DNA of 64,000 bases from Mustelus asterias (Eukaryota), in NCBI RefSeq assembly GCF_964213995.1, contig NC_135825.1:12276001-12340000 (forward strand), given 5' to 3'. Position numbers and translations under genes: made by a program. The notes under the pieces were generated by a model. That model saw only the letters and a program-made list of their open reading frames with translations, was not told where the DNA came from and searched no databases. Of this stretch, positions 13,401-58,504 are shown in pieces; position 1 is the first letter of the stretch; every line of letters begins with the position of its first letter.

Positions 13401-16400
13401 GGATTTGGACCCGCTCACCACATTTCAGAGTGAATCAATCTGTGTTGGAGAATCGTTCTGGTCCGTCCCTTATGTTGTCAAATGAGCCTCTTCAGACACT
13501 GGAGTTGCAACACATCAAGGAAGCTGATCAGGAAACGTATACTCCCTGTGTTGTGGGATTGCCCGTCAGTGAGTTGCTTGTCTCTGTTCATTCCTTTGTC
13601 TTGTGGAGCTCAGGGTCTGTGTGGAGGAGGCAGTTGCTGCTATTGGTGCTGTTGGTCACCTGGGTCCTCATCTGAGGCCCAAAATAAAACAGTCTGAGAA
13701 CCACCCATGCTGATCTGATAGATACAATCACCAAAATGTAACCCAGAAATACACATTACCATCTCTGTTGTGAAAGTCAACACCCTGTAAATACTGATAT
13801 TAAACCTTTCACACAATCAGGCGAGAAATAAGCAGTGAGGTTCCAGTGCTTCTTGGCATCTTTCCCAGTCACTTCTTCAGCCTCCCCCATTGCCTCTGTC
13901 TTCTGCCCTTGCTCAGTAACCCGAGCCGCCACAGGTAGATTCCACTAATTGCACTCACTGAGCGATTAATAGACTGAAATTGATAACCCGTCTCTCACTG
14001 GGGGGATTTGATCACACACGGATTGACACATTTAATGTTTCCATGGAGATTTTTATGATCATTTGGAACATTTGGAATATTGTGTCCAATTCTGGTCACC
14101 ACACAACCAGAAGGATGTGGGGGCTTTGGAGAGAGTGCAGAAAAGGTTGACCAGGATGTTGCCTGGTATGGAGGGTATTACCTATGAGGAGAGTTTGAAT
14201 GAGCTGGGATTGTTCTCCCTGGAAAGACAGAGGCTGAGGGGCAACCTGAGAGAAGTTTATAAAATTATGAGAGGTGTGGATAGAGTGAACAGTTGGAAGC
14301 TTTTTCCCAGGGCAGAAATGACAATTAGAAGGACGCACAAGTTCAAGATACCGGGTCAAAGATTCAGTGGAGATGTGCGGGAGAACTTTTTTACACAGAG
14401 GGTGGTGGGCGCCTGGAATGCACTGCCAAGTGAGGAGGTTGAGGCACTTATGTTAGCTATATTTAAGGTTTTATCTTGATAGACGTATGAACAAACAGGG
14501 AATAGAGGAATATAAGCATTGGTAAACGTGATCAGCGCAGGAAGGGCCTGTTCCTGTTCTGTACTGTTCTTTGTTCTTTGTTCTTTGATCCCTTTAAGGG
14601 GCTTTCACCATATTGGATTATTTAATTGTTTAATTTGCCGATTTGTTAACTTTTAATCTGTCAGCTTCACCCTGAATTTTCAGTGGTTTATTTGAAAGAA
14701 GCACAAACTGACACATTGCGGATACATCCGGATGTTGGGGGTTTGACTGGCTTCCCAACATATTGTCAATTTCTGTGTATTTAACCCCTCTATGCTCCCC
14801 CACCCACCCCCACAGCCCCACCATTCAGCGCTAAACCAACAAGGTACAATTACTACCAACTGGCTGCTCACTTCACTTTGTTAATGTCTGACTATTGGAT
14901 TGATCCGGACTGTAAAAATCTGACAGTGTGATATTTAATACATTTCAGAGACAGGGAAATATTCTGAGAATCACAGGTAATGTCTTTCACAATATCCTAT
15001 AGTTAAAGGAATTGTTTGTCTGATTATGTTTGAAGTTCTTGATCAGAATGTTGGACAGGCCACGAATTGAGTTTGTGTCACAAGAGTCGGATTTCCAGAT
15101 CTCTGCCCTCTGGCTGCCAGACTCTGCATTGCTGCAGAGCCTCGGGATATCGGAGCTGTCAATGTTTCCTTGCGGATAAAACATGGATCAGACATTTCAG
15201 TAATAAAGAAAGTCATTGAGAATAATGTACCGTAAGATATTTGCAGCTCCACAGAAAACTTTCGATCGAAGTCAGGTTTATCAATTCCACAGCTGTACCA
15301 TCCTGCATCTCCTGAGCGAAGATCCTCCATCGTAACAGCAAATATTGCTTGTGACTTGTTATCTGTGATCGACAATCTCCCTCGCCGTCCATCTGGATCA
15401 TCCGTTCTCACTAAATATGAGCAATCTTCAGTCCAACTGTTACACCAATATTTCACATATTGTTTGTATTGTCCATTATATTTGCAATTTATTGTGATCG
15501 ATCTTCCCACAATTCCTGTGACTTTCATTTCTGCCCGCAATGCACCTGAAACTGAGGAGACAACATTTCAGCGATTGACCAAGTAAATAACTGCTTAATG
15601 CAGAGAGAAACATTTTAATAAGATTTACCACTGTGTACAGAGGAAACTCTCCAATATCTGTATTCATCATTCTCTTTCTGGTTTGTGATGAATGAAAACA
15701 TGAATATAGAGCCGTGCTGTCAGTGCCAAAGTCCTTCACTGACAATGATTTCTTGTTAATGTACAGTGGCCATTTTTATTGTGTCACCTTGTCACTCAAG
15801 CTTTGCACTGGCGCCTCTGAATGGGTGGATTGCAGGGTCAGGTCCCACTCCAGAGACTGGAGTATAAAATCTACACTAACATTCCAGTGTAATACTGAGG
15901 GACAAGATGGCTCAGATTTTCCTGCCCCCAGTCATGTTCACAGAGCTCGGTGATGTCTTTCAGTTGAAAGGTTAATCTGACACCCAAGTCTGGACATTCC
16001 CTGTCATGGAGAAAATCCCAGGAATGGCTGGAATTTCAAAGGCCGGAGAGTGGGCGTGGGACTGGAATCGGGCTGGCATTCACACATGCGCGATTCGTTC
16101 AACTCTGGATTGCCTTAAATTCATCATCTGCCTCGACTGAAGTGGGATTTTGGATGAACAGAAGTGTGTGTGGAATCTGGAATGTGCAGATTAGAATATT
16201 GAAGAAAAGGTCTGAACTTGGTGGATTCTTATAGACAGCCAGGGTACAACTTCTGGAGAGGGAAGTTACTCTTTGGGAGGGGAAAGTTTCTCTTTGAGAC
16301 AAACTCTGGTGAGCGGTCAGGGCCGGAGTGATTATTTGATTGTTTAAATTATTTTATTTATTAACCATGGCGCTGGGGCACTGAAACAGGCCTTGTGTCC

Positions 16401-18302
16401 AGCTCACCTCCGGGCCGAGCAGCCTGTGGATTTGTTCCCGGGTCACCCGTCCCGACTCACTTTTTAATGCCTTTCCCGACTCAGTGAACACGACCCAGGG
16501 ACGGCGATCTGGGCCTCAGTCTGCCCCACAGGTCAGTGCACCAGGAATGACACATTACTCAGGAAAAAGTGCAATGAAGGTTCCCAAGACTGGTTCCTGG
16601 GATAAGGGGATGGGATGGGAACAGGTTGAGTCCACAAGGTGCATGTTTCCTGTTAGTTGGAAGTATCAGAGGTGATTGAATTGAAATGTGTACAATTCTT
16701 AAGGAGCTTGACAGGATACATTTTGAGCATATATGTACCACCCTACCAGGGCTGGGCATTCTGCATCACAGGATCACAGTCTCGGAATAAAGTGAGAGAC
16801 ACGAAGGATGAGATGAGGAGATTTTTATTCACTCAAGGTGTTGTGAATCCTTGGAATTCTCTGCACCAGAGAGCTTTAGATGTTCGGTCTTGAAGGATAT
16901 TAAACACAGAGATTTATACAATTTTTTGGTCCCAACATAATCGAGGGGTATGGGGATAGTGAAGGAAATACGAATTGAAGTTGGAGATCAGTGAGCATGT
17001 TGCTGAATGATGGAGCAGGCTCAAAGGGACAAAGGCCAACTCCTGTTCCTATTTATAATGTTCTTCTTGAGGAGGAGAGGTGGCAGTATGAATCAAAAAT
17101 TCCATTGCAGACAGCATAATAGCATCAGTTTAGTAAGGGGCTGGTGTGAAAATTTAGATTTACTTTGTTAAATGTTAAAGAATGAAAAGAAAATGATTCC
17201 ATCTTGGATGGACAAAGTAGACAAAGCATGTACAAGTGATTGGGCGGCACGTTGATACAGTGGTGAACACAGCTACGTCACTGCGCCAGGGACCCGGGTT
17301 CAATTCCAGCCTCGGCTGACTGTGTGGAGTTTGCACCTTCTCCCCATATCTGTGTGGGTTTCCTCTGGGTATTCCAGTTTCCTCCCACACTCCAAAGGTG
17401 TTCAGGTTAGGTTGATTGGCCGTGCGAAATTCCCCCTTATTGTCTCAAGATGTATAGTTTAAGAAAATTAATGAGGTAAATATGTGGCGTTACGGGCATG
17501 GGTAACACGCTCTTTGGTGCAGACTCAATGGGCCGAATGGCCTCCTTGTGCACTGTAGGGATTCTATGAAGCAGACTCACTGACAGAGATTGATAAAACT
17601 TTCATCAGATGTAATTTAAATAATAGAAACAATTGCAAACTTGAGGAATATTTTCCTGGAGCCTTTGTTGCCTCTGCAGTCTTCAGAGTCAATTCAATGA
17701 GCAATAATCTGCAATGGATCACAGGCATCTCTCAACATTAGGGAAAGATAATTGGTTACATTTAGTGTGGGGGGCACCACTCCACAGGAATGGGGAAAGG
17801 TGAGGAGGCAGATTTCCATAAACTACCACAGCCGCTCTGAGGATTGAACCCCTGCCATTGGAATCATTCTGCATTGCACTCCAAACAACTGAGCCAATCA
17901 AACCCTCCAGTCTCCAGGATATACTGAGCATGAAACTACATTAACAAGTTAACTTTTATTGGACTGAAATGTGTTGCTTCTGCATTTTAATTATATTAAT
18001 CATATAGCTTTTTAACAAAAATAAATAGGTTAATTTATATTCACAATCAATAATGCCGTTTATTATTTGCTGGGTAAATATTTCTGTGGGACAATACTAT
18101 CAACAAAATAGCTACAACTTTCACACAAATGTCATTAATTTATTTTTGCTGCGTTTTTGTAGCTTTACATGTCTCCAAGTATTTAAATATCTCTGCCGTA
18201 GAAACCATGCACTAGACTTAATCCAACACTCATCATCTCGGGATCCATTTTTGTCCCTTACTCACCAGGCAGAGAAAAGATGAAAAGAATCAGAATCCAC
18301 AT
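4393..18302 (-). CDS. Gene A: spliced pIgR/CD300-like Ig-superfamily receptor, L-V-C2-C2-TM-short tail. Predicted exons 18266-18302, 15231-15551, 11705-12028, 10434-10782, 8111-8210, 4393-4440; about 392 aa
   Basis: All introns are GT-AG with compatible phases (1,1,1,2,0). Exon lengths sum to 1179 nt with no internal stop. Leader, Ig V, Ig C2 and TM signatures occur in the expected order, and each exon has a paralog in gene B. The last exon is the least certain. Confidence 0.8.
6548..6745 (-). mobile_element. Penelope-like 3' fragment with a hammerhead motif at 6605-6641
   Basis: Minus strand CCAT-CTGATGA-A-GGAGC-AGC-GCTCT-GAAA-GCTA-ATGG, followed by the same ..CCAAATAAACCTGTTGGACTTTAACC tail as the 23728 insert. 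Confidence 0.7.
6790..7760. repeat. Complex CAGTG(C/T)-based satellite in the post-TM intron of gene A (shorter paralog at 41990-42308)
   Basis: Hierarchical repeats of CAGTGC, CAGTGT, CCATG and CAGGGGT units. Confidence 0.9.
8111..8210 (-). CDS. Gene A transmembrane exon (LLSSFIWNVIRWGLFTLLVICVISVTWYTRKSQ)
   Basis: Acceptor atttcttccag, donor CAG|GTGAGG; hydrophobic helix followed by an RK stop-transfer; same peptide as gene B. Confidence 0.85.
8950..10010. mobile_element. Probable non-autonomous DNA-transposon-like repeat in the C2-TM intron (paralog about 39715-40780)
   Basis: GC-rich insert with GGCACTGCC/GGCAGTGCC motifs shared with the other MITE-like repeats; termini not firmly resolved. 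Confidence 0.45.
10434..10782 (-). CDS. Gene A membrane-proximal C2-type Ig exon
   Basis: Same C2 motifs, ending ..NCSCVTQIDSFGVAWTESE. The phase-2 donor TG|GTAAGA matches the phase-2 acceptor of the TM exon. Confidence 0.82.
11705..12028 (-). CDS. Gene A C2-type Ig exon 1 (FCRL/PECAM-like)
   Basis: EPVSVPEL..VSVSCESVQGSLPIQYTWY..YYCTASNNQG; acceptor ttcccacag, donor G|GTAAAT; 324 nt. Confidence 0.88.
14063..14590 (+). mobile_element. CR1-type LINE 3' end (paralog about 30715-31250, minus)
   Basis: LEYCVQFWSPH..LERVQKR..LGLFSLE..LRG..FFTQRVV..WNALP plus a (TTCTTTG)n tail. Confidence 0.9.
15231..15551 (-). CDS. Gene A V-set Ig exon, pIgR/CD300 type
   Basis: GRSITINCKY..KYWC-x6-C..GRLSITDN..FAVTMEDLRSGDAGWYSCGI has the B/F cysteines plus the extra C-C' cysteine pair of pIgR/CD300/TREM V domains. 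Acceptor tctcctcag, donor G|GTACAT. Confidence 0.9.
18266..18302 (-). CDS. Gene A exon 1, signal peptide (MWILILFIFSLP)
   Basis: ACAATGTGG start, hydrophobic 12-mer, phase-1 donor G|GTGAGT; joins in frame to (V)SGALRAE of the V exon. Confidence 0.85.
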
Positions 18303-26581: not shown

Positions 26582-26618
26582 ATGTGGATTCTGATTCTTT
26601 TCATCTTTTCTCTGCCTG
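26582..26618 (+). CDS. Gene B exon 1, signal peptide (MWILILFIFSLP)
   Basis: ATG at 26582, donor G|GTGAGT. Confidence 0.85.
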
Positions 26619-29600
26619 GTGAGTAAGGGACAAAGCTGGATCCCGAGATGATGAGTGTTAGATTAAGTCTAGTGCATGGTTTATCCCGCAGAGATATTTA
26701 AATACTTGGAGACATGTAAAGCTTCAAAAACTCAGCAAAAATAAATTAATGAATTTGTGTGATATTTGTAGCTATTTTGTTGATAGGATTGTACCACAGA
26801 AATATTTACCCAGCAAATAGTAAACGGCATTATTGATTGTGAATATAAATTCATCTATTTATTTTTGTTAAAAAGCTATATGATTAATATAATTAAAATG
26901 CAGAAGCAACACATTTCAGTCCAATAAAAGTTAACTTGTTAATGTAGTTTCATGCTCAATATATCCTGGAGACTGGAGGGTTTGATTGGCTCAGTTGTTT
27001 GGAGTGCAATGCGGAATGATTCCAATGGCAGGGGTTCAATCCTCAGAGCGGCTGTGGTAGTTTATGGAAATCTGCCTCCTCACCTTTCCCCATTCCTGTG
27101 GAGTGGTGCCGCCCACACTAAATGTAACCAATTATCTCTCCCTAATGTTGAGAGATGCCTGTGATCCATTGCAGATTATTGCTCATTGAATTGACTCTGA
27201 AGACTGCAGAGGCAACAAAGGCTCCAAGGAAATATTCCCTAAGTTTGCAATTAGAAACATAGAAAAATAGAAACTAGAAGCAGGAGTAGGCCATTCGGCC
27301 CTTTGAGCCTGCTCCGCCATTCATTTTGATCATGGCTGATCATCCAATTCAATATCCTGATCCCCTTCTTCCCATATTCCTTGATCCCTTTATCCCCAAG
27401 AGCTATATCTAATTTTTTCTTGAAATCACACAACGTTTTGGCCTCAACTACATTCTGTGGTAGTGAATTCCATACATTCACCACCCTCTGGGTGAAAAGA
27501 TTTCTCCTCATCTCAGTTCTTTGTGGTTTGCCCCTTATCCTCAAACAATGACCCCCTAGTTCTTGACTCCCTCACCATTGAGGGCATTCTTTCTGAATCT
27601 CCCCTGTCTAACCCTGTTCAAATTTTATGAATTTCTATGAGATCCCGTCTCACTCTTCTAAACACCAGTGAATATAATCCTAACTGACTTAGTCTCTCTT
27701 CATATAGCAGACCTGTCATCCCAGGAATCAGCCTGGTCAACTTTCACTGTACTTACTCTATAGCAAGGACATCCGTCCTCAGATAAGGACACCAAAACTG
27801 CACACAATACTCTCGGTGAGGCTATACCAATGCCCTGTACAATTGCAGCAAAACATCCCTATCCCTGTACTCAAATCCTCCCGCTATGAAGGCCAACAGA
27901 CCATTTGCCTTCTTTTGTTTGTATTATTTAAATTATTACGAATGAAATATTGTTTTATGAAGCTCTGTTGGTGACTCTGCTTCAAAGAATCCCTACAGTA
28001 CAAAAGGAGGCCATTTGGCCCATCATATTTGCAACAACTCTCCGACAAAGCATGTTACCCAGGCCCTATCCCCGTAACATCACATATTTCCCTCACTAAC
28101 TTTCCTAACCTATACATCTTTGGACATTAAGGGACAATTTAGCATGGCCAATCAACTTAACCTGCACATATTTGGACTGTAGGTAGAAACTGGAGCACCC
28201 TGCGATATCCCACGCAGACATGGGAGAAAATGCAAGCTCCACACAGTCACCTGAGGCCAGAATTGAACCCAAGTCACTGGCCCTGTGAGGCAGCCGGGCT
28301 CACCATGGTACCATCCAATCACTTGTACATGGTTGGTCTACTTTGACTTTCAAAGATGTAATCATTTTCTTTTTAAAGTAAATCTAAATTTTCACACCAG
28401 CCCCATATTAAACTGATGCTATTATGCTGGCTGCAATGGAATTTTTGATTCATACTGCCACCTCTCCCCCTCAAGATGAACATTAGAAATAGGAGCAGGA
28501 GATGGCCATTTGTCCCTTTGAGCCTGCTCCATCATTCAACAACATCCTGACTGATCTCCAACCTCAAATCTTATTTCCCGCACTATTCCCATATCCCTCG
28601 ATTATGTTAGTACCACAAAAATGTATAAATCTCTGTGTTTAATATCCTTCAAGACTGCACATCTAAAGCTCTCTGCGGTGGAGAATTCCAAAGATTCCCA
28701 ACACCTTGAGTGAAAACAATCTCCTCATCTCATCCCTGGGTCGTGTTCATTGAGTCAGGAAAGGCATCAAAAAATGAATCGAGACGGGTGACCCAGGAAC
28801 AAATCCACAGGCTGCTCAGCCCGGAGGTGAGCTGGACACAAGGCCTGTTTCTGTGCCCCAGCGCCATGGCTAATAAATAGAATAATTGAAACAACCAAAT
28901 AATCACTCCGGCCCTGACCACTCACCAGAGTTTGTCCCAAAGAGTAAATTTCCCCCCACAAAGAGGAACTTTCCCCCCTCAAAGAGTAACTTTCCCCTCC
29001 CAAAGAGTAACTTTCCCCTCCCAAAGAGCAACTTTCCTCTTCCAAAGAGTAACTTTCCTCTCCAGAAGGCATACCCTGGCTGTCCATAAGAATCCACCAA
29101 GTTCAAACCTTCTCTTAACTATTCTAATCTGAAAACACCGGATTCCACACTCCTGTTCATCCAAAATCTCACTTCAATCAAGGCAGGTGTTGAATTTAAT
29201 GACAATTCGCCTCCACGAATCGTGTATGCAGCCTGATTCCAGTCCCGCTCCCACTCTTAGGACTTTGAAATTCCAGCCATTCCCGGGATTTTCTCCATGA
29301 CAGGGAACCTCCAGACCTGGGTGTCAGATGAACCTTTCACCTGAAAGGCATCACCGAGCTCTATGAACATGACTGAGGGAGGAAAATCTGAGCCATCTTG
29401 TCCCTCAGTATTACACTGGAATGTTAGTGTAGATTTTATACTCCAGTCTCTGGAGTGAGACCTGACCCTGCAATCCACCCATTCAGAGGCGCCAGTGCAA
29501 AGCTTGAGTGACAAGGTGACACAATAACAATGGCCACTGTACATTCACAAGAAATCATTGTCAGTGAAGTACTTTGGCACTGACAGCACGGCTCTATATT

Positions 29601-32600
29601 CATGTTTTCATTGATCACAAACTAGAAAGAGAATGATGAATACAGATATTGGAGAGTTTCCTCTGTACACAGTGGTAAATATTATTAAAATGTTTCTCTC
29701 TGCATGAAGCAGTTATTTACTTGGTCAATTGCTGAAATGTTGTCTCCTCAGTTTCAGGTGCATTGCGGGCAGAAAAGAAAGTCACAGGAATTGTGGGAAG
29801 ATCGATTACAATAAATTGCAATTATGATGGAAAATACAAACAAAACGTGAAATATTGGTGTCACGGTTGGACTGAACGGTGCTCATATTTAGTGAGAACG
29901 GATTATACAGATGGACGGCGAGGGAGAATGTCGATCACAGATAACAAGGCACAAGGAATATTTGCTGTTACGATGGAGGATCTTCGCTCAGGAGATGCAG
30001 GATTGTATCGCTGTGGAATTGTTAAATATTTCTCAGATCCAAAGGTAACCGTGGAGCTGCAAATATCTGAGGGTACATTATTCTCAATGATTTTCTTTAT
30101 TACTGAAATGTCTGATCCATGTTTTATCCACAAGGAAACATTGACAGCTCCGATATCCCGAGGCTCTGCAGCAATGCAGAGTCTGGCTGCCAGAGGGCAG
30201 AGATCTGGAAATCCGACTCTTGTGACACAAACTCAATTCGTGGCCTGTCCAACATTCTGATCAAGAACTTCAAACATAATCAGACAAACAATTCCTTTAA
30301 CTGCAGGATATTGTGAAAGACATTACCCGCGATGCTCAGAATATTTTCCTGTCTCTGAAATGTCTTAAATATCACACTGTCAGATTTTTACAGTCCGGAT
30401 CAATCCAATAGTCAGACATTAACAAAGTGAAGTGAGCAGCCAGTTGGTAGTAATTGTACCTTGTTGGTTTAGCGCTGAATGGTGGGGCTGTGGGGGTGGG
30501 TGGGGGAGCACAGAGGGGGTTAAATGCACAGAAATTGACAATATGTTGGGAAGCCAGTCAAACTCCCAACATCCGGATGTATCCGCAATGTGTCAGTTTG
30601 TGCTTCTTTCAAATAAACCACTGAAAACACAGGGTGAAGCTGACAGATTAAAAGTTAACAAATTGGCAAATTAAACAATTAAATAATCCAATATGGTGAA
30701 AGCCCCTTAAAGGGATCAAAGAACAAAGAACAGTACAGAACAGGAACAGGCCCTTCCTGCGCTGATCACGTTTACCAATGCTTATATTCCTCTATTCCCT
30801 GTTTGTTCATACGTCTATCAAGATAAACCTTAAATATAGCTAACATAAGTGCCTCAACCTCCTCACTTGGCAGTGCATTCCAGGCCCCCACCACCCTCTG
30901 TGTAAAAAAGTTCCCCTGCACATCTCCACTGAACCTTTCCCCCGTTATCTTGAACTTGTGCCCCCTTGTAATTGTCATTTCTGCCCTGGGAGAAAGCTTC
31001 CAACTGTTCACCCCATCGATATCTCTCATAATTTTATAAACTTCTATCAGGTCGCCCCTCAGCCTCCGTCTTTCCAGGGAGAAGAATCCCAGCTCATTCA
31101 AACTCTCCTCATAGTTAATACCCTCTATACCAGGCAACATCCTGGTAAACCTTTTCTGCAATCTCTCCAAAGCCTCCACGTCCTTCTGGTTGTGTGGGAC
31201 CAGAATTGGACAAGTATTCCAAATGTTCCAAATGATCATAAAAATCTCCAAGGAAACTTTAAATGTGTCAATCTGTGTGTGATCAAATCCCCCCAGTGAG
31301 AGACGAGTTACCAATTTCAGTCTATTAATCGCTCAGTGAGTGCAATTAGTGGAATCTGCCTGTGGCTGCTCGGGTTACTGAGCAAGGGCAGAAGACAGAG
31401 GCAATGGGGGAGGCTGAAGAAGTGACTGGGAAAGATGCCAAGAAGCACTGGAACCTCACTGCTTATTTCTAGCCTGATTGTGTGAAAGGTTTAATATCAG
31501 CATTTACAGAGTGTTGACTTTCACGAGAGTGATGGTAATGTGTATTTCTGGGTTACATTTTGGTGATTGTATCTATCAGATCAGCATGGGTGGTTCTCAG
31601 GCTGTTTTATTTTGGGCCTCAGATGAGGACCCAGGTGACCAACAGCACCAATAGCAGCAACTGCCTCCTCCACACAGACCCTGAGCTCCACAAGACAAAG
31701 GAATGAACAGAGACAAGCAGCTCACTGACGGGCAATCCCACAACACAGGGAGTACATGTTTCCTGATCAGCTTCCTTGATGTGTTGCAATTCCAGTGTCT
31801 GAAGAGGCTCATTTGACAACATAAGGGACGGACGAGAATGATTCTCTGACACAGATTGATTCACTCTGAAATGTGGTGAGCGGGTCCAAATCCCACTGGA
31901 GAGTCCAGCAGCGTATTGCTGAGTGAGCCACTGCACACACACCGATCTGTCACCGTGGAGAGTGGCGCATGCACACTGGCCCCTTCACCGCTGGCCTCCC
32001 GATCGCTGGCCATCCCGACCCCCCACCACCATCCGACCACTGGCCGACCAGAGCTCTCCCGGGCCAGCCCCGATCTCCCCTCACCCAGATGGCCAGCGCT
32101 GATCCCCCTCCTCTCTCCCTCTCCCACTGATCCCAGTGCACAGTGTCACTGAAAAACCCCCAACTCATTGAGCCCCCAATAGGCCACACCCTCCAGCATG
32201 CCACCCACCCACGCTAGCACCACCCACTTTGGCACTGCCTGGTGCCTGGTGGGAGGTGCCAGTATTTGTTTTATTCATTTGTGGACATGGGCATCGCTGG
32301 CTGGGTGGCATTTATTGCCCATCCTGAGAGGTTTGCGAGGCCATTTCAGAGGACAGTCAAGAATTAACCACATTGCTTTGGCTCTGGCATCACATGTAGG
32401 CCAGACCAGGAAAGGCTGGTAGATTTCCTTCTTTAACGGACATGAGTGAACCAGATGGGTTTTCCAATAACTGACAATGGTTTCATGGTGATCAGTAGAT
32501 TCTTAATTCCAGATTTTCTTTCTTGAAATCAAATTCCACCACCTGCCATGGCGGGATTCGAACCCTGGTCCCCAGAGCATTAACTGAGATTCTGGATTAA

Positions 32601-35600
32601 TAGGCTAGCGATAACACCACTGGGCCATCACCTCCCTGTGGGTATCTGCATATCTTTGGTTGTGGGAGGAAAATGAAGCACCCAGAGGAAAACCACGCAG
32701 ACACGGGGGGAATGTGCAAATTCCACACTGACCACACAGCCAATGCTGGAATTGAATCCGAATCGCTGGCGCTGTGAGGCTGCAGTGCTAATCACTGTGC
32801 CACTGTGCCCCACTGGGTTGACTGAACAAGCAATCCAATCTAATCCCACCATCTAGTTCTTCATCCAGAGCTCTGTAGGTTACAGCATCTCAAGTTTAAT
32901 CCATTTTGTTTAATGTAATCAGGTTATCCGCCTCTCCCACCCTCGACCACTCTTCCAGGCAGTGAGTTCAGGACCCTCAACATCCCCCGAGTGAAATAAC
33001 CCATTGCCCCAAATCTCCTCTAATCCATTCACCAATTAATTTAAATCTTTAGCTCCTGGTTCATGGTCTGATCTGGAGAGCTGCGATGTCCTGATATAAT
33101 AGTAGACATTGTAGTTCAGGCTGCTGGGAGGGTGGAGAGATATGGAGAGCTGGATGTGTTGGTGAGATTGCAACATGACTGAACCTGAATGAGAGGTTGA
33201 TGAGCTGAAATTCACAGAGTGTTTGATTTTTAGATGTTCAGTCAGTGTCTGAATGTTTGTTTCTTTCCCACAGAACCCGTGTCTGTTCCTGAACTTAGAT
33301 TTTTATCACCACCAAATGCCTCATGTTCTGGGGGCTCAGTGTCCGTCTCCTGTGAGTCTGTCCAGGGATCACTTCCCATTCAGTACACATGGTATGAAAA
33401 GACCCCGTCTGAAGATTCAAAGATCTCTGACACCAATAAACTGGATCTGCATTGTCAATCCTTCAAACAGCAACATCATCAATATTACTGCACAGCCTCA
33501 AATAACCAGGGAGAAAAACCCAGTGAAATGGTGAATGAGTCAGTGATCAACATTTCAGAGAATGACTGCAGTTATTTAACACAAATCAGCAACATTGGTA
33601 AATATCACTTTAAGCTTGAAAAAGTACAACTAATTTTTAAATTAACATCAGTCTGAATAGCTCACAGGTTAAGTTCCATCAGTTGCTTGAAGCAATTGGA
33701 ATGAAAATAGAACTGCATTTATTTAGCACTTTTCAGAACTTCAGGACAGTTTTAAAGTCTGTTCTGGTCAATGCTGGAACTGATTCAGAGCCACTGTTGT
33801 GATGTAGGAAGCTCAGCACCAATTTGTGAGCAATAAGCAATAAGCACGGTAGCACAGTGGTTAGCACTGCTGCTTCACAGCTCCAGGGTCCCGGGTTCGA
33901 TTCCCGGCTCGGGTCACTGTCTGTGTGGAGTTTGCACATTCTCCTCGTGTCTGCGTGGGTTTCCTCCGGGTGCTCCGGTTTCCTCCCACAGTCCAAAGAT
34001 GTGCGGGTTAGGTTGATTGGCCAGGTTAAAAAATTGCTCCTTAGAGTCCTGGGATGTGTAGGTTAGAGGGATTAGTGGGTAAAATATGTGGGGGTAGGGC
34101 CTGGGTGGGATTGTGGTCGGTGCAGACTCGATGGGCCGAATGGCCTCCTTCTGCACTGTAGGGTTTCTATGATTTCTATGATTTCTTCTATGATTTCAAA
34201 GAGCAATGTGACCCTGAGCAGACAATCTGCTGTCTGACAATTGCTGTTTGAGAATACAATAACTCCAGGAGCCGGCTGTGAAGGAACCGTGCTTTTGTTA
34301 CACAAAATGAAAATAAAGAATAACCCCATGCCTGTGGTGAACACAAAGGTCCCAACCAGGACTGAAATGTGAATGGATCCTCTCAAGGTCTTGCTTCGTA
34401 CAAAGCTTGGTATATGAGCTCCACATGATTGGCTAATTATCACTCCCCAGGGAGCTCACATTCAATGAGGCCAACGGGGAGGTCAATGAGTGATTCCCCA
34501 CGCAGATCATGGGGTTTATCACAGAGAGATAAACTTTCCCCACTCCTCCTTTGTTCCCCTTGTCCACTGGGGTTCCCGATGTCCATGGGGTGGGGCCTGA
34601 TATTTTTGGGCAATGGCGGGGGGGATTGTGCATGCAGTGTGGTGGAGACTTTGAATGGGAGGTTTGGCATCGAGGCTGTGGGGAGTGTGAATGGGGATGC
34701 TGGCAGAGAAGGGCAGGTGTTGGGTGGAGTGCCCTGTTCTTTGAGTGGCGGGATGTTGAGGGGAGGCTGACCCTTTACATGAGGGGTGTTCCCCTTGTCC
34801 ACTGGAGGTCCCAGTGTCCATGGGGTGGATCCTGATATCTGTGGGCAATGGGGGGATTCTTTCACTTAACTTTAACTTCAACTTTAAAAATGGTGCCCAA
34901 TCTCTATGGAGACGGCCTTGCCAGCTCAATCAGGCCCCGCCCCACCAGGGTGACAACACAAAACACGCCCCCTGATGTTTTTTTGACAATGGCAGGAGAT
35001 CTGGTGGGGAAAGCAGTCTGTCTTTCTGGAGAGAAACTCACCGGTTTTCAGTCCCAACCTGAGAAGTTGAATTTTTTCTGGAAAATTCCACTAATTGTAT
35101 TAATGTTCCCAACATCTCAAACAAGAAAGTATTCAATTGCATTAGAAGATGTATTGGAGAGATTTCTCTGAACACAGTGGTAATTCCTATTGAAATATAT
35201 CTGTTTGTATGAAGCAATTATTTTCAGTTCAGTTTTTGACCTGTTGTCTTTTCAGCTCCGAGTGCATTGTGGGCAAAAAATAAAGTAACAGGAGTTTTGG
35301 GAAGATCGATCACTATAGATTGTCACTATGACAAATTGTCCCAGTCACATGTGAAAACTTGGAGTCGTCAGTGCTCTGTTTTGGTAAAATCAGACGATCC
35401 AGATGGACGGCGAGGGAGAATGTCGATCACAGATAACAAGACACAAGCATTATTTGTTGTTACTATGGAGGATCTTCGCTCAGGAGATGCAGGATGGTAC
35501 AGCTGTGGAATTGATAAGCCCGGCCTCCTTTCAATATTTCCTGTAAAGCTACAAATATCTGACGGTACATTGTTCTCAGTGATTATCTTTATTACTCTCG

Positions 35601-38600
35601 ACTGAAATGTCTGATCGGTGCTTTATCTGGGAGGAGACATTGACAGCTCCGATATCCCAAGGCTCCGCAGCAGTGCAGAGTCTGGCAGCTAGAGGGCAGT
35701 TAGAACAATGATTATGTTGGAGGAATTGTAATTCAGAGGCCCAGAGTAATGATCCAGAGAGATAGGATCAGATTTATTGCACCTTGGAACCAGCTCTCCT
35801 GGTTAACCAGTTGGCAAGGACCCCACCCATGCTCCTGATGGCTGGAAAATGGACCTTGACCACTTCCCGGATACTCACCAGATACTCACCAAAAGCTCAC
35901 TTCTTCCCCTGTAGTAAATTCCTTCAGCTCATTAAACCTCCACATTCGGTCGGAGTCAGACTCCAGTGCTGGTTGCACTGAGAATGTCTGAATTTATATG
36001 TTCAAAAACAAAGGGACTCAGTACAAAAAGACCAGTTCAAGCCAGTTTCCCCAATTAACTATTCCAGTTGCTGCCAGTGGATAGCTTCTATCGCCCAGCT
36101 CATGCCCTTTGGATGGTACTTATGTCAAAATTTTACTGCCTCGCCCGCCATGGTATCGGAGCGGGTGTGGGGCAGACAACGGAAATGTCTGTTGACCTTG
36201 GCCGGGATTTTACAGTCTCGCTCATTCGAGGCCATAAAACCCCACCCTGAAATTGAAACAGTACTCACACTTAAATGTTAAATGGTACTTACTGTTAAAT
36301 GTTAAATAAAAATACAAACAATGGCCGGAATTCACCGAACCCGTCCGCAGCTGGAATTATCCAGTCCTGCTGCTGTGAATGGAGATTTGGCTGAGCGCCA
36401 AATTCCCTATTCCAACTGGCAGCAGGGGCGGATCACTCGATATCAGAGATTTCAGGTCAAGATTAGATTTTTAGATAGATATTTTAAGTCTCCGTTATCT
36501 CAGCAAACATCCACAGTCTATCTCAGGTCACACTCCAATGCTTGTTACTAACTAATCTGCGATCATGAATATCTGCTGTCCGTGACTGCAATCAATAGAT
36601 ACTACCTGCATTCGGCCAAGCTCTCACTGCCATCTCTCTCTCTCTCTAACACTTTCCCTTCCTCCTCACACCCTGGATCAGGTGTCGAAATATTGGTAAC
36701 ATGAAACTATTTAATTTTTTGGTCATTCTAAAGTTTAAAGTTTTAAAGTTTAAAGTTAAACCTTTATTTAATTCGTGTCACAAGTAGGCTTACATTAACA
36801 CTGCAATGAAGTTACTGTGAAAATCCATTAATGATTGTCTTTTTCCCACAGAACCCGTGTCTGTTTCTGAACTTAGATTTTTATCACCACCAAATGTCTC
36901 ATGTTCTGGGGGCTCAGTGTCCGTCTCCTGTGAGTCTGTCCAGGGATCACTTCCCATTCAGTACACATGGTATGAAAAGACCCCGTCTGAAGATTCAAAG
37001 ATCTCTGACACCAATAAACTGGATCTACATTGTCAATCCTTCAAACAGCAACATCATCAATATTACTGCACAGCCTCAAATAACCAGGGAGAAAAATCCA
37101 GTGAAATGGTTCCAGTGTCAGTGATCCACATTTCAGAGAATGATTGCAGTTATTTAACACAAATCAGCAACATTGGTAAATATCACTTTAAGCTTCAAAA
37201 AATTCAACTAATTTTTGAATTAATGTCTGTCTGAATTGCTCACGGGTTTAGTTCTATTGCTCGAAGCAATTTTAATAAATATAGTATTGCATTTTTTTCG
37301 CTTTTCACAACTTCAGGTCAGTTTTAAAGTCAGTTCTGGTCGATGCTGGAACTGATTCAGAGCCATTGTTGTGATGTAGGAAGCTCAGCACCAATTTGTG
37401 AGCAATAAGCTCCCTCAAGGAGCAATGTGATCATGAGCAGACAATCTGCTGTCTGACAATTGCTGTTTGAGAATATAATAACTCCAGGAGCCGGATGTGA
37501 AGGAACCGTGCTTTTATTGTACAACATGAAAATAAGCAATAACCACACACCTGTGGTGAACACAACAGGTCCCAACCAATACTAAAAGATTAATGGACCC
37601 TCTCAAGGTCTTGCTTTATAAAGGGAATGTCATACAATCTCAATATGGTTGTCTAATTATCAACCCACGGGGAGCACATATTCAGTGATACCAACGATCT
37701 CAAACAAGGAAGTATCCAATTGCATTAGAAGATGTATTGGAGAGATTTCTCTGAACACAGTGGTAAATCCTATTGAAATATATCTATTTGTATGAAGCAA
37801 TTATTTTCAGTTCAATTTTTGACCACTTGTCTTTCCAGCTCCAAGTGCCTTGTCAGCAAAAAATAATGTAACAGGAGTTTTGGGAAGATCGATCACTATA
37901 GATTGTCACTATGACAAATTGTCCCAGTCACATGTGAAAACTTGGAGTCGTCAGTGCTCTGTTTTGGTAAAATCAGATGATCCAGATGGACGGCGAGGGA
38001 GAATGTCGATCACAGATAACAAGACACAAGGATCATTTGTTGTTACTATGGAGGAACTTCACTCAGGAGATGCAGGATGGTACAGCTGTGGAATTGATAA
38101 GCCCGGCTTCCTTTCAATATTTCCTGTAAAGCTACAAATATCTGACGGTACATTGTTCTCTGTGATTATCTTTATTCCTCTCGACTGAAATGTCTGATCG
38201 GTGCTTTATCTGGGAGGAGACATTGACAGCTCCGATATCCCGAGGCTCCGCAGCAGTGCAGAGTCTGGCAGCTAGAGGGCAGTTGGAACAATGATTATGT
38301 TGGAGGAATTGTAATTCAGAGGCCCAGAGTAAAGGTCCAGAGAGATGGGGTCAGATTTATTGCACCTTGGACACTGCTCTGCTGGTTAACAAGTTGGCAA
38401 GGACCCCACCCATGCTCCCGATGCCTGGACAATAAACCTTGACCACTCCCCGGAAAGTCACCAGATACGCACCAACAGCTCACTTCTTCCCCTGTTGTAA
38501 ATTCCTTCGGATCATTAAACCTCCACACTCGGTCGGAGTCAGACTCCAGTGCTGGTTGCACTGAGAATGCCTGAATTTATATGTTCAAAAACAAAGGGAC

Positions 38601-41600
38601 TCAGTACAAAAAGACCAGTTCAAGCCAGTTTCCCCAATTAACTATTCCAGTTGCTGCCAGTTATTAGCTTTCATCTTCCAGCTCATGTCCTTTGGATGAG
38701 ATTTAGACTTCAATCAGTACATGTCGTCAAAATGTTAAACAGTTCTCACAATTAAATCCCAGACAGCGATCAATAGATACGACTTGCAATTGGCCAAACT
38801 CCCACTGCCATCACTCTCTCTCTCTCTCTAACACTCTCCCTTCCTCCTCATACTCTGGATGAGATGTAGAAATATTGGTGACATGAAAGTATTTAATTTT
38901 TTGGTCATTCAATTTGTATCTGAATGTTTGTTCCTTTCCTACAGAACCCGTGTCTGTTCCTGAACTTATATTTCTATCACCACCAATTGTCTCATGTTCT
39001 GGGGGCTCCGTGTCCGTCTCCTGTGAGTCTGTCCAGGGATCACTTCCCATTCAGTACACATGGTATGAAAAGACCCCATCTGAAGATTCAAAGATCTCTG
39101 ACACCAATAAACTGGATCTCCATTGTCAATCCTTCACACAGCAACATCATCAATATTACTGCACAGCCTCAAATAACCAGGGAGAAAAATCCAGTGAAAC
39201 GGTTACAGTGTCAGTGATCAACAGATCAGGGGAGAATTGCAGTTGTGTGACACAGATCGACAGCTTTGGTGTGGCATGGACGGAAAGTGAGTGGTAAGAA
39301 ATACCATGATTTTGACCTAATAACGGTATGACAACAGGTGACACAGGGGCACTGTGGTTAGCAGTGCTGCCTCGCAGCACGAGGGATCCAAGTTCAATTC
39401 TGGCCTTGGGTGACTGTCTGCCTGGAGTCTGCACGTTCTCTGTACCTATGTGAGTTTCCTCCGTGTGCTCCGGTTTCCTCTCTCAGTCAAAGATCTGCAC
39501 AGAAATCTAACCTGTTTCTCTGGAGAGACACCTGTCGGTTTTCTCGCCGGAAACAACACTGTCATTTTTTGCTTAGCTTCCCCCCTACATGGCTAAAATG
39601 AGCCATTATCCTGCTCTCCCAGCATCTGAGCTAAATGTTTTACAGACACACCGACTGCCTCCAGAATAAAGCTGAATCTGTCAACAGCCCCCATAAACAT
39701 AAAACACAAGATTTGGGAAATCTGACTGAAAACTGTTGGTTCTGGCTCGAAGCAGGTTGGCTTTCTCTCCAGAACTTACCACATTCTGTCACAAAAAAAA
39801 CAGCTGGGCGTGTTTCACATCATCATGTAGGGGGCGGGGCCTCGATACACCAGCAAATCCTGGCTGCAGTAAGCTGACAGTGCACAAACATGGCGGCCCA
39901 ATCAAAACAAAATGTTTCCCCCAAATCCCACCACACCCCGGTCAGAGTCGGGGCATCCTCCTATTATGAGCCAGCAATTCTCCCCCCACATCACCCCTCA
40001 GCAGTCAGTGCTGACACCAAGCCCCTCCCCCAAATATCAAACCCTTCCTCCCTTCGTGCAGTCAGTGCTGGCACCACCCCCCTTCCCCCCGAACATTGGA
40101 GCCCTTCCCTCCAACCCTCCACCCACACAGCCATTGCCGACAAACCCAGCCCCTTCCCACAAACGGCTACTCCAGCTCCCCTGTCCGCTCCGGCCCACCC
40201 TCACTTGTAAATGAATAACCCCTCCCCCATGAGACTCCCACTGAGGTCCACCCCGGAACTGCCACTGGTACAGGTTGGCACTGCCAAATTGGCAATTTTG
40301 GGGTGGCATGGTGCCAACTTGGTAGTGCCAACCTGTGCCAAGGGAGAGTGCCAGAGGGCATTGCCAGGCCACTGCCTGACCATATCCCTCTTGCCCAGGA
40401 AGGGGGTTCCCCATCATGTCCAGGTGAACCTGTTGTAAAATGCACCAATATAATGTCACGTTGCCCTGGTTTGAAAACACAGCGAGGGCTCAATATCTGG
40501 GGCGGGGGACGGGGGGGTGGGGAGAGGGGCGGTGGGGGTCGGTGGGGGGTCTTGAATGATATCCAAATATATTAAAATGTTTGTAAATCAGGTTCTCACC
40601 CACTATGGTGGTGAATCTGATGAAGCCACCTGCGCCCTCCAGGTTTTGCCAGATATTGAATCCCCAACAGCATTCCTGTGGTCCCCCAACCCGGGCTCAC
40701 CATCCCACCCAGTGGCTGTGTTTACATAATGCTATTGTGTTAGCTTCCTAACAAGTTGCTGCTTCTGTCAGTGGAAATTCAGACTAAAAAGTGAGCTTTC
40801 TCTGTTTGCCACACCTTAGATGTTGCAGTTTTCATTATTCATGTTAATCACTTCACCGTGAACCCAATCTCATGGAGTTGTGCTTGTCACACTCCAGCGA
40901 TGCCAGATTCCCTTAACCCGGTGTGTTCTGGAGTATCGCTGACAGGAACATTGCATTCACTGTCATCTTCTCCTTCTCAGTTGCCCAGTTTAATACATTG
41001 TTCCCAAACTGAGGCCATCTGCTTCCGGCTGGTTCCGAATTTCCTGTTAGGAGGTGCACCAGGGAATTGTGGGATGATGAAAACAGAAAGTGATGGAAAA
41101 ACTCAGCAGGTCCGGCAGCATCTGTGGAGAGAGGAGCAGAGTTAATATTGAGTGGAATATGATTCTACTTTGAAACAGTGTGGGATGATGTTATTGGAAG
41201 TTTCTTACTCACTGAACAGATATCTCACCAATGTTATGTTGCACCAGACAATGTTTCTGTCCCAATGACCAGTCAATTCATAACATTCTTACTTCTAAGA
41301 TTTTACTCAGCATTCCAGATATACTGAGGAAAGTTAATGAAACCAGCTCCATTTGATCTGTATCTAATGATCATGAAGTTGATCAGTGAAACTTTAGTTG
41401 ATTGCTCCAGCTAACGTGCCTTGTCTGTGCGACGTTGCTACAATAGGTCACAGTGTAAAGAGGAGATTAATGTTTCAAACACGAAGCTGCCTCATTCCCT
41501 TCAAATCATTCTGTATTTCTTCCAGTTTGCTCAGTTCCTTCATCTGGAATGTGATTCGCTGGGGGCTCTTTACCCTCCTGGTGATTTGTGTGATTTCGGT

Positions 41601-43736
41601 CACATGGTACACGAGAAAATCTCAGGTGAGGATTATGGACTTTACAACAATCATTCTGAGCACTTTGTAATTATCACAGATATTGTGCAGAGAAACTTGC
41701 ACTGATGTCAATGTCCACAGGATTAAACACGGGGGGGAATTTTACCTTTCATTTCCAAGTGTGGCAGGGGCAGGAAAAGGGGCGGTGAAGAAATATGGTG
41801 AAGAATATGTGTATAAATGTTGAAGGGACAGGATACTGCCCATCCCACCAGAAATTTCAGTTTCTTAAAGATCAAAATGATATTTTTGAAAGTCAACTTG
41901 ATGCACAAAAGTGAAAATGAAACCCCCCTCCCCTTGCACAACCCCATGCACACCTCCCCCCCGCCCCCCCCGCCGCCCCCCCCATCCCCTGACACTGCCT
42001 CTGGCACTGACCCCTGGCACTGCATGGACGCTGCCCCAGCAGTGACCCTTGGCACTGCATGGACACTGACACTGGGGCACTGACCCCTGGCACTGCATGG
42101 ACACTGACACAGGCATTGACAACTGGCACCGCATGAACACTGACCCCTGATACTGCATGGACGCTGCCCCAGCATTGACCCCTGGTACTGCATGGACACT
42201 GACACTGGCACTGACCACTGGCACTGCATGGACACTGTCCCCGCACTGACCCCTGGCACTGCATGGACACTGACACTGGCACTGACCATTGGCGCTGCAT
42301 GGACACTGTTCTATTTCACGGGATGTGGACGTCACTGGCAAGGGCAGAATTGTTGCCCATCCCTAATTGCCAGATCCGAGTGGCTTGCTTGGCCATTTCA
42401 GAAGACAGTTCGGAATCAAACCCATCGCGGTGGGTCTGGGGTCACATGGAGGTCAGACTGCATAAGGAAAACAGATATCCTTCCGTGAACGATATTAGTG
42501 AGCACTTATGACAATTTATGACCGTTTATCACCATCTCCAACCAACCAGATGGGTTTTTACAACAATTGATGACAAGTTTCCTGGTCACCATTGGTCAGA
42601 TTTTCAATTCCAGATTGATTCATCAATTGAATTTGAATTCATTGCATTTATATTCCACCAGCTACTATGTTGAAATCATGTTCCCAGCACTTTATTATCA
42701 GCCTCTGGATTACTAGCCCAGTGACATTGACACGAAACCACCATCTCTGCAATATCAATACATCAGAATGATACAGGGAAGAATGGAGTAAATTATGTGC
42801 AGACATTGCACAAATTTGCTGCATTTCCTCACACTTGGAGGTTGCTGGGATCGGTGATTGAAGTTTTTATGGGATTCAGTATGGTGGGTACAGAGAAACT
42901 CTTTGCCCAGTGGGGAGATGGAGTACACGGGGCCATAACCCAAAAGTGAGGGCTTAGATACTTAGGAGTGAAATTAGAAAGTATTATTTTCACACAGCTA
43001 GTCATGGAAACCTGGAACTAATCCATCCTAAAATCTGTGGATGCTGGGCCAATTAGAATTCTCACAGCTGGGATTAGATAAGACAGGGACCCAGGTTCGA
43101 TTTTGGCCTTGGGTGAGTGTCTGTGTGGAGTTGCAGGTTGGTGTGACAGGCTCGAGGAGCTGAATGAGCTGCTCTTGTTGCTGTGTTCCTGTGTAACCCA
43201 TCCATGGAAGCACCCTTCCATCTTATCATCCAATCTTATTAAACTGTCAGCAAAAGGAAAAGGAAGGAAATTGGAAAGGTTATAAAAAGGCAACAGGGCT
43301 GACTGTTTCTGGACAGGAACTGGAGGAGATTTCAAATGATTCAGACTGCAGTAAGAGGCTGAGACACAGACCCAATGATGTTGTTGCTGGAAGCACCAAC
43401 TGGACTGTATAAAATATTTTTAGAAACATGGACATAGCAATCAATTTCTCCAGTCAATTGTCCATAATCACAGCTTCAGGGGAACATTGGTTTTCTGTGG
43501 GTAAATAAGGTTATGTGTCTTCATGAAGGATCCAAACGAGTGTTTCCCAGCGCACATGCAAAGGGCGATCAATGTGATCTCGAAACTGCCCCAAATTGTT
43601 GCCATTTCCAGAATTCTTTTCAAGACTGAAATGTCAATTGATGCATTGTTCTCCCAGTCTCAATGAATCTGATGATTTTCTTTTCCAGTCACTCAATGAA
43701 TCCAATTCTCACAGTTGGACCAAAGTGGGAAAATGA
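26582..43736 (+). CDS. Gene B: spliced pIgR/CD300-like Ig-superfamily receptor, L-(V-C2)x3-TM-short tail. Predicted exons 26582-26618, 29752-30072, 33274-33597, 35256-35564, 36852-37175, 37839-38147, 38945-39293, 41526-41625, 43689-43736; about 706 aa
   Basis: GT-AG introns with phase-1 junctions between Ig exons. Lengths sum to 2121 nt in one open frame. Confidence 0.8.
27251..27915 (-). mobile_element. CR1-type LINE 3' end inserted only in intron 1 of gene B
   Basis: RRNLFTQRVVNVWNSLP peptide and microsatellite tail; the site is empty in genes A (near 17630) and C (near 63628). Confidence 0.85.
28935..29065. repeat. 21-bp tandem repeat, about 6 copies, in intron 1 of gene B (about 2-3 copies in gene A near 16250-16300)
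   Basis: Unit CCAAAGAGTAACTTTCCCCTC. Confidence 0.85.
29752..30072 (+). CDS. Gene B V1 exon (pIgR/CD300-type V domain)
   Basis: GRSITINCNY..KYWCHGWTERC..DAGLYRCGI; 321 nt, canonical splice sites. Confidence 0.9.
30715..31250 (-). mobile_element. CR1-type LINE 3' end
   Basis: ALERLQKRFTRMLPG..RRLRGDLIEVYKIM..FFTQRVV. Confidence 0.9.
33274..33597 (+). CDS. Gene B C2 exon 1
   Basis: EPVSVPEL..CESVQGSLPIQYTWY..YYCTASN; ttcccacag acceptor and G|GTAAAT donor. Confidence 0.88.
33845..34197 (+). mobile_element. Full-length tRNA-derived SINE (HE1/V-SINE-like), specific to gene B
   Basis: Box A/B head (TAGCACAGTGG..GGTTCGATTCC), central GTGTGGAGTTTGCAC domain and (TTTCTATGA)n tail. The site is empty near 37410 and 11465. 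Confidence 0.88.
35256..35564 (+). CDS. Gene B V2 exon (shortened C-C' region)
   Basis: APSALWAKNKVTGVLGRSITIDCHY..KTWSRQC..DAGWYSCGI; 309 nt; ttttcag acceptor and G|GTACAT donor. Confidence 0.85.
36852..37175 (+). CDS. Gene B C2 exon 2
   Basis: Near-identical to C2 exon 1; 324 nt; canonical splice sites. Confidence 0.87.
37839..38147 (+). CDS. Gene B V3 exon (near copy of V2)
   Basis: APSALSAKNNVTGVLGRSITIDCHY..DAGWYSCGI; 309 nt; ctttccag acceptor and G|GTACAT donor. Confidence 0.85.
38945..39293 (+). CDS. Gene B membrane-proximal C2 exon 3
   Basis: C2 motifs, ends ..NCSCVTQIDSFGVAWTESE; donor TG|GTAAGA (phase 2). Confidence 0.82.
41526..41625 (+). CDS. Gene B transmembrane exon with N-x-x-R motif
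   Basis: ttcttccag|T TTG CTC..; peptide WNVIRWGLFTLLVICVISVTWYTRKSQ; donor CAG|GTGAGG. Confidence 0.85.
43689..43736 (+). CDS. Gene B putative terminal cytoplasmic exon (SLNESNSHSWTKVGK*)
   Basis: Polypyrimidine acceptor, phase 0, TGA at 43734-43736, ATTAAA near 43853 and AATAAA near 44003. Confidence 0.5.
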   Translation, partial: SLNESNSHSWTKVGK

Positions 43737-53784: not shown

Positions 53785-54078
53785 TGATGCACCTCAATGA
53801 GCACCCGGAAACAAGGCTTTAGAACTGAAGGCTTTAATACATTAACAATGAAACTACTAACACAAATTCACCCGTTCAGACTGAAGGGGTCCTGCCGGAG
53901 CAGGGGGTCTTATACCCTGCCACCGGAGGCGGGACCCCACTGGAGTGTGCCATGATAACACTTGGGACAGGTAAACACCCTAACCCAACAACATAGTACA
54001 ACCCCCATAACAACAACACCCTAGCCCAACAGTAACACAATAACAACCCCAGTGGTGAACCAACGATGGTTCACCACA
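53785..54078 (-). repeat. 3' LTR
   Basis: Direct repeat of 58211-58504, preceded by the polypurine tract on the minus strand. Confidence 0.92.
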
Positions 54079-54150
54079 TTCACCCCTCCTTTAGGAACCA
54101 AAGGTGGCGGGGTGGATGAAAACAGACAATGACAAAAAAAATAACAGGAT

Positions 54151-58188: not shown

Positions 58189-58210
58189 ATTCTCAGTTAA
58201 TGTATTAAAT

Positions 58211-58504
58211 TGATGCACCTCAATGAGCACCCGGAAACAAGGCTTTAGAACTGAAGGCTTTAATACATTAACAATGAAACTACTAACACAAATTCACCCG
58301 TTCAGACTGAAGGGGTCCTGCCGGAGCAGGGGGTCTTATACCTTGCCACCGGAGGCGGGACCCCACTGGAGTGTGCCATGATAACACTTGGGACAGGTAA
58401 ACACCCTAACCCAACAACATAGTACAACCCCCATAACAACAACACCCTAGCCCAACAGTAACACAATAACAACCCCAGTGGTGAACCAACGATGGTTCAC
58501 CACA
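58211..58504 (-). repeat. 5' LTR (TATAA at about 58340, Inr-like TCAGT near 58308, ATTAAA near 58264)
   Basis: Direct repeat of 53785-54078; promoter and poly(A) motifs read on the minus strand. Confidence 0.92.

Follow-up and report, generated by a model that had tools for sequence, protein, structure and literature searches.

A divergence peak at the distal V exon of shark MDIR-type receptor genes, consistent with selection on binding loops and short-tract gene conversion

Results and discussion

The distal V exon of a family of shark receptor genes forms a divergence peak inside a homogenised trough, and we consider it probable (roughly 70%) that selection for differing binding loops, together with short-tract conversion among close copies, explains this peak. 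In such a process, short conversion tracts would homogenise the flanks of the exon and reshuffle loop variants among close copies, and selection would retain residue differences, and add new ones, in loops that face outward from the distal domain. Pathogens are the usual driver of such selection. The reading fits divergence-peak and MHC-type shuffling models, as presented in the accessible part of PMC3924837. The pattern at the distal V exon is real, and is a new example of one expected and already known from immune receptors. The window throughout is the 64,000-nt stretch of Mustelus asterias DNA analysed here (NC_135825.1, 12,276,001 to 12,340,000), and coordinates up to 64,000 are window positions.

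Receptor cluster

The distal V exon of genes A and B corresponds to a Pfam V-set domain. Among solved structures, it is closest to pIgR and CD300 in sequence and to CD300a/CD300lf in fold. The predicted model of the gene B domain has a pLDDT of 87, and its top folds are CD300a/CD300lf with TM-scores of 0.88-0.90. The extra C-C' cysteine pair of the CD300/pIgR-type V (C36 and C43) is invariant in the six paralogs compared below. Clearnose skate MDIR proteins (e.g. MDIR5, P0075) have a near-identical leader, alternating V/C2 domains and an arginine transmembrane (TM) motif, and MDIR5 is 58% identical over 432 aa to the cluster protein P0001 (a fused model), which on sequence comparison places the shark genes in the MDIR (CD300/pIgR-like) receptor family. 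Unlike the skate genes, shark A and B are without a stalk exon and the shark inner VB domains are minus one C-C' cysteine. MDIRs are characterized as multigene activating/inhibitory CD300/pIgR-like receptors in the accessible part of PMC3031540. In the literature searched, outside subscription journals, we found no study of MDIR evolution (selection, conversion) in sharks, and a search for V-sized homologues gave zero candidates.

The genome contains 59 V matches, on a single contig and all inside 0.9 Mb. In the mapped 664 kb there are 20 leader exons, 51 V exons (11 VA, 30 VB and 10 VC by subfamily) and 53 C2 exons in modular V + C2/I arrays. Of the TM exons, 12 are arginine-type and 4 are neutral; IVYASV/VTYATL motifs follow the neutral ones. 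We take these tyrosine motifs to be of the ITIM type. With signalling roles assigned from such motifs, the cluster would be a multigene family having both activating-type and inhibitory-type members. A separate leader exon accompanies every one of the ten close VA exons; therefore, all ten are truly distal. The NCBI models P0001 and P0002 contain internal VA domains and were read as gene fusions, since each close VA has a leader. The database models P0001, P0002, P0005 and P0008 seem to merge separate genes, skipping leader and TM exons.

Genes A and B are both arginine-type and form an inverted duplicate (11465-16501 versus 33838-28733, 92%). Their exons, with the basis of each assignment, are as follows.

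29752-30072, plus strand: distal V exon of gene B, a V-set of the CD300/pIgR type with both ends in phase 1 (Pfam, splice contexts, model)
15231-15551, minus strand: gene A distal V exon (Pfam, splice contexts, A/B comparison)
26582-26618, plus strand: gene B leader exon (exon map)
18266-18302, minus strand: gene A leader exon (exon map)
33271-33597, plus strand: gene B C2 exon 1, used as control domain (exon map)
11705-12031, minus strand: gene A C2 exon 1 (exon map)
10459-10785, minus strand: gene A C2 exon 2 (exon map)
35259-39268, plus strand: gene B inner VB-C2-VB-C2 exons, limits approximate, VB used as control (Pfam, exon map)
41526-41625, plus strand: TM exon of gene B, bearing an arginine, with no stalk exon found upstream (exon map)
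8111-8210, minus strand: TM exon of gene A, bearing an arginine, with no stalk exon found upstream (exon map)

Most cluster genes have a stalk exon, and for A and B no match to one was found within the window. The last C2 exon and the TM exon of both genes are out of phase, so that a direct C2-to-TM splice is out of frame. The missing stalk exon and the phase mismatch suggest that A and B may either give secreted products or be dead. One candidate for a cryptic stalk is an open stretch rich in Ser/Thr/Pro that has a GT donor, at 40062 in B and 9629 in A. The gene with its TM exon at G000:C25:11923803 is laid out like the stalkless spans of A and B (8111-10785, minus strand, and 38944-41625, plus strand). 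The inner VB exons of gene B (35261-35560 and 37844-38143) still show the remnant of a signal peptide (SALWA/SALSA). Four residues are missing from them, among these the first C-C' cysteine, so that one cysteine has no partner; the exons are under purifying selection (dN/dS 0.55).

Divergence of the distal V exon

The initial annotation described the V domains of A (15232-15549, minus strand) and B (29754-30071) as differing at 23 of 106 residues, the read-through translation of the adjacent intron at 2 of 62 positions and C2 exon 1 at about 7 of 108 residues, with identical leader and TM. Our recount gave the same values, and the leader and TM exon DNA is identical over the stretches printed. 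At the DNA level, the exon differs at 34 of 320 sites (10.6%), compared to 9/350 and 10/350 in the adjacent 350-bp flanks (Fisher p=5e-7); for the downstream intron over its full length, the figure is 140/3189 (p=1e-5). In order to have independent sequences we used six distal exons (g1, g2, g3, A, B and g10) from one haplotype, a small set from which g4-g7 were left out as near-copies of g3 (0-1 nt). The exon is more divergent than the downstream 550 bp in 15/15 pairs of these paralogs, by 2.2 to 5.2 fold.

The exon had been called far more divergent than its own flanking intron. This holds for the near flanks, but outer non-coding sequence is equally divergent: about 500 bp upstream, at 29101-29300, A and B have 16 and 19 differences per 100, and 28736-29752 as a whole differs at 75/933. 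The near flanks are unusually alike, and therefore the exon/intron contrast partly reflects similar flanks. We profiled gene B against the five other paralogs, of which g2 is alignable only from the exon onward. Divergence is low within approximately 29350-30750 and rises up to 17% beyond it (8-17% in outer non-coding sequence), so that the exon stands out as a peak within a trough. The profile delimits two regions.

29350-30750: homogenised tract of about 1.4 kb, mostly 1-4% between paralogs outside the exon (profile of B versus five paralogs, limits approximate)
28950-29300: older, unhomogenised non-coding block, in which the divergence of B is 14-17% relative to A, g1 and g10, but 1-3% relative to g3 (profile)

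The upstream intron alignment of g2 (L009, G000:C25:12025406) breaks off a few bases upstream of the V acceptor, at what looks like a repeat insertion beside the splice site.

The exon-like divergence (8-17%) of the outer non-coding sequence favours an account without positive selection, one that we regard as unlikely, in which the loops are unconstrained and the exon, by escaping homogenisation or being mutation-prone, shows older true divergence that was erased in the flanks. That A and B may be non-functional points the same way. However, this account gives no reason for the exon to escape between two homogenised flanks, and the framework Cys and Trp positions are invariant. Other evidence on it is given with the loops and the selection tests.

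Position of the changes

The observation that A/B changes cluster in loops was borne out on the model topology: they fall at 16/37 loop or loop-edge positions versus 7/64 elsewhere (p=0.0004), with loop limits drawn after seeing the data. Variability at these loop sites is likewise higher among 201 V domains, taken from 96 proteins of other cartilaginous fish (2.19 versus 1.21 bits, p=2e-5). The six framework Cys/Trp positions are all invariant. Two patches stand out.

29820-29879, plus strand: variable patch from the BC (CDR1) loop to the CC' loop, where B equals inhibitory-type g2 at 16 consecutive polymorphic sites
30021-30050, plus strand: densest patch, FG (CDR3) loop and start of the G strand, where the motif of B is found besides only in inhibitory-type g1

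Synonymous variation in the loops is raised too (pS 7/18 versus 44/529 in the intron), a point for escape without selection. According to the accessible part of PMC7162533, mouse CD300lf binds murine norovirus through its CC' and CDR3 loops. By homology to CD300lf, the BC, CC' and FG loops are the putative ligand-binding face.

Probable conversion and shuffling among paralogs

The variants form a patchwork shared among paralogs. Both states occur among the other four close paralogs for 25/34 of the A/B differences, and private alleles number 8 in A and 1 in B. In a PHI-like test, informative sites close together were more compatible than sites far apart, with p=0.010 for the exon at 30 bp and p=0.0003 for the intron at 100 bp; for the exon at 100 bp the test gave p=0.27. 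The run of 16 polymorphic sites common to B and g2 over BC-CC' has p=0.0056 (uncorrected, best of 15 pairs), and none of the pairwise longest-run tests over the 15 pairs is significant after correction. Conversion among close copies is present, and we infer that gene conversion made the patchwork. The initial annotation had put positive selection and exon-limited gene conversion as alternatives. Conversion indeed occurs here, in short tracts and among close paralogs, but the either/or was wrong.

The form of conversion that is limited to the exon, with divergent loops brought in from a distant paralog, is very improbable in our estimate, and this part of the earlier proposal was abandoned. Among 80 variant alleles, 54 are in none of the 41 mapped distant V exons (eight further genome V matches were left out of the comparison) and 26 are in some. 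B is nearer a distant V in 0/48 windows; for A this holds in 5/48, which lie in the conserved F-strand region and where the margin is 1-2 mismatches. The CDR3 26-mer of B has 2 genome matches, in B and g1 only, which also argues against distant import, although a donor could sit on another haplotype. Sequencing-run contigs mapped to the exon were a mixture of paralogs and were excluded as evidence.

Shark antibody hypermutation is AID-like and produces tandem substitutions. Tandem changes are enriched in the distal V exon (13/34 versus 24/140 in the intron, p=0.010), as they might be if an AID-like mutator acted on it, the least probable of the accounts considered. On the other hand, WRC/GYW motifs are not enriched (8/30 versus 25/101, p=0.81), and the variants are common to genomic paralogs and therefore germline. 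A more speculative and in our view doubtful extension of the conversion reading is a germline loop-shuffling cassette: the tract of about 1.4 kb, with the distal V exon at its centre, would be conversion-prone, and stalkless genes like B would gather inhibitory-receptor loops (BC/CC' as in g2, FG as in g1) and act as a secreted chimeric decoy or a loop donor.

Tests for selection: counts and internal controls

For the A/B pair, dN is 0.125 and dS 0.083, and the ratio of 1.5 is not significant (Fisher p=0.66). In the six paralogs each variant was scored once per codon, and the count therefore ignores shuffling; the distal V then has a pN of 0.286 and a pS of 0.158 (ratio 1.81). In these six genes, C2 exon 1 has a pN of 0.090 and a pS of 0.191. 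The first inner V of five genes has a pN of 0.068 and a pS of 0.106, and the distal V of these genes 0.253 and 0.160, respectively. Synonymous variation of the distal V is ordinary for the cluster and nonsynonymous variation is about threefold higher. These internal controls are the clearest evidence for selection and tell against simple escape from homogenisation, in that the exon pS equals that of C2, yet its pN is threefold higher. The positive selection proposed from A and B is thus moderately supported by the six paralogs and the internal controls, and not by the A/B pair alone. We accordingly hold, with moderate confidence, that the distal V is under diversifying selection, which would maintain the loop differences.

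Equally elevated synonymous divergence in the exon had been put forward as an indication of conversion from a distant paralog rather than selection. We looked at it, and V pS (0.158) is ordinary next to that of C2 (0.191). It is not decisive as a refutation, since linked dS also goes up when selection acts against conversion (accessible part of PMC3924837).

The M0 estimate of dN/dS is 1.63 for the distal V versus 0.59 for C2 (p=0.039), and 0.55 for 26 inner V. Whole-exon dN/dS is 1.63-1.90, and its excess above 1 is not significant (p=0.12, 0.08). Counting along the most synonymous pathways gives a ratio of 1.36 (p=0.18, uncalibrated), and one of 0.98 for CDR3 alone. The VC subfamily shows no excess (0.77-0.83). 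The A/B changes in the exon are transversion-rich, with transitions at 9/34 versus 77/140 in the intron (p=0.004). Under a home-made, star-shaped neutral simulator tuned by eye (conversion plus hot sites), the ratio of 1.81 was reached in 0/400 and 0/400 simulations, so that the observed value lies beyond what escape without selection produces there. For the four inhibitory-type genes alone, the ratio of 1.54 was reached in 2/400 and 0/400 neutral simulations; an earlier under-scaled simulation gave 2, 1 and 0 of 250 neutral runs.

Tests for selection: codon site models

A dN/dS check with site models had been proposed. Run in this way on the six paralogs, M1a/M2a and M7/M8 give a 2dL of about 44 (19 with multi-nucleotide changes), and 46 with unique g4-g7 copies retained. 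In neutral simulations with conversion alone, 13/26 pass the 5% cut-off and 0/26 reach 44; with conversion and hot sites, 27/28 pass and 4/28 reach 44. A neutral fast-site model also fits as well as M2a (-898.72 versus -898.69), again in favour of escape without selection. The check is therefore unreliable here, and both comparisons were dropped as evidence for selection since neutral simulations attain similar values. A like bias is reported in the accessible part of 10.1101/174839. High-scoring sites 5 and 106 are outside the fold, and their scores are probably due to conversion homoplasy.

We then freed dN/dS in the fast-site class. The estimate was 3.0 (p=0.039), became 5.0 when multi-nucleotide changes were allowed (p=0.031), and lay at 3.7-6.6 when kappa was held at an intron-like 2.5 (p=0.008-0.010). 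The test statistic was reached by 1/28 neutral simulations. Addition of a seventh, distant paralog weakens the signal (p=0.16 and 0.08). There is moderate evidence, in the six paralogs, for dN/dS above 1 after rate variation and recombination (p 0.008-0.04).

Comparison to known systems

Exon 5 of the red/green opsins is similar in that one exon is highly divergent and the flanking introns are low (accessible part of PMC3924837). However, the opsins represent two fixed alleles, whereas the shark has at least six sequence types swapping variants, closer to MHC-type haplotype shuffling. The Xenopus and mammalian CEACAM paired receptors share with the shark genes inverted orientations, conversion in a ligand-binding exon and a build-up of nonsynonymous changes on the CC'C''FG face; in contrast to the shark, it is there the exon that is homogenised and the introns that diverge (accessible part of PMC5112662). 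Mammalian CD300lf/CD300a are the best fold matches of the shark V, itself a predicted model, and their locus is said in the accessible part of PMC7162533 to be under positive selection. Unlike the shark proteins, they are single-V receptors (37-44% identity).

The V domains of g3 and g4-g7 differ by 0-1 residue, and these near-identical activating/inhibitory members are pairs from recent tandem duplication, a textbook paired-receptor set. A and B are not paired: they are 12-27 residues from every inhibitory-type V, and B matches loop by loop only. If the selection-plus-conversion reading is true, the paired-receptor arms race of mammals and frogs would extend to the oldest lineage of jawed vertebrates. 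Some dozen loop residues can be named as candidates in the search for MDIR ligands. In practical terms, database models seem to fuse several genes here, and plain site-model tests give too strong a signal of selection in clusters of this kind.

Other observations

The paired set occupies five tandem units of about 37 kb (G000:C25:12100000-12272000), with one inhibitory-type (g3) and four arginine-type genes (g4-g7). The arginine-type copies use the inhibitory-type stalk exon, and the number of units could partly be an assembly effect. Three of the four inhibitory-type tails, which include G000:C25:11964761, 12081174 and 12384307, end directly after VTYATL; that of g3 runs on. The inner V exon 12044429 has two stop codons. 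Leader exons at G000:C25:11954173, 12086705 and 12393195 have no nearby V of their own, and some lie beside tail-exon fragments. Within the window, an element at 53785-58515 carries direct repeats of 305 bp that are 98% identical, along with a long open frame whose motifs are presumably retrotransposon-like, and a transposase-like frame lies at 52097-51162 on the minus strand.
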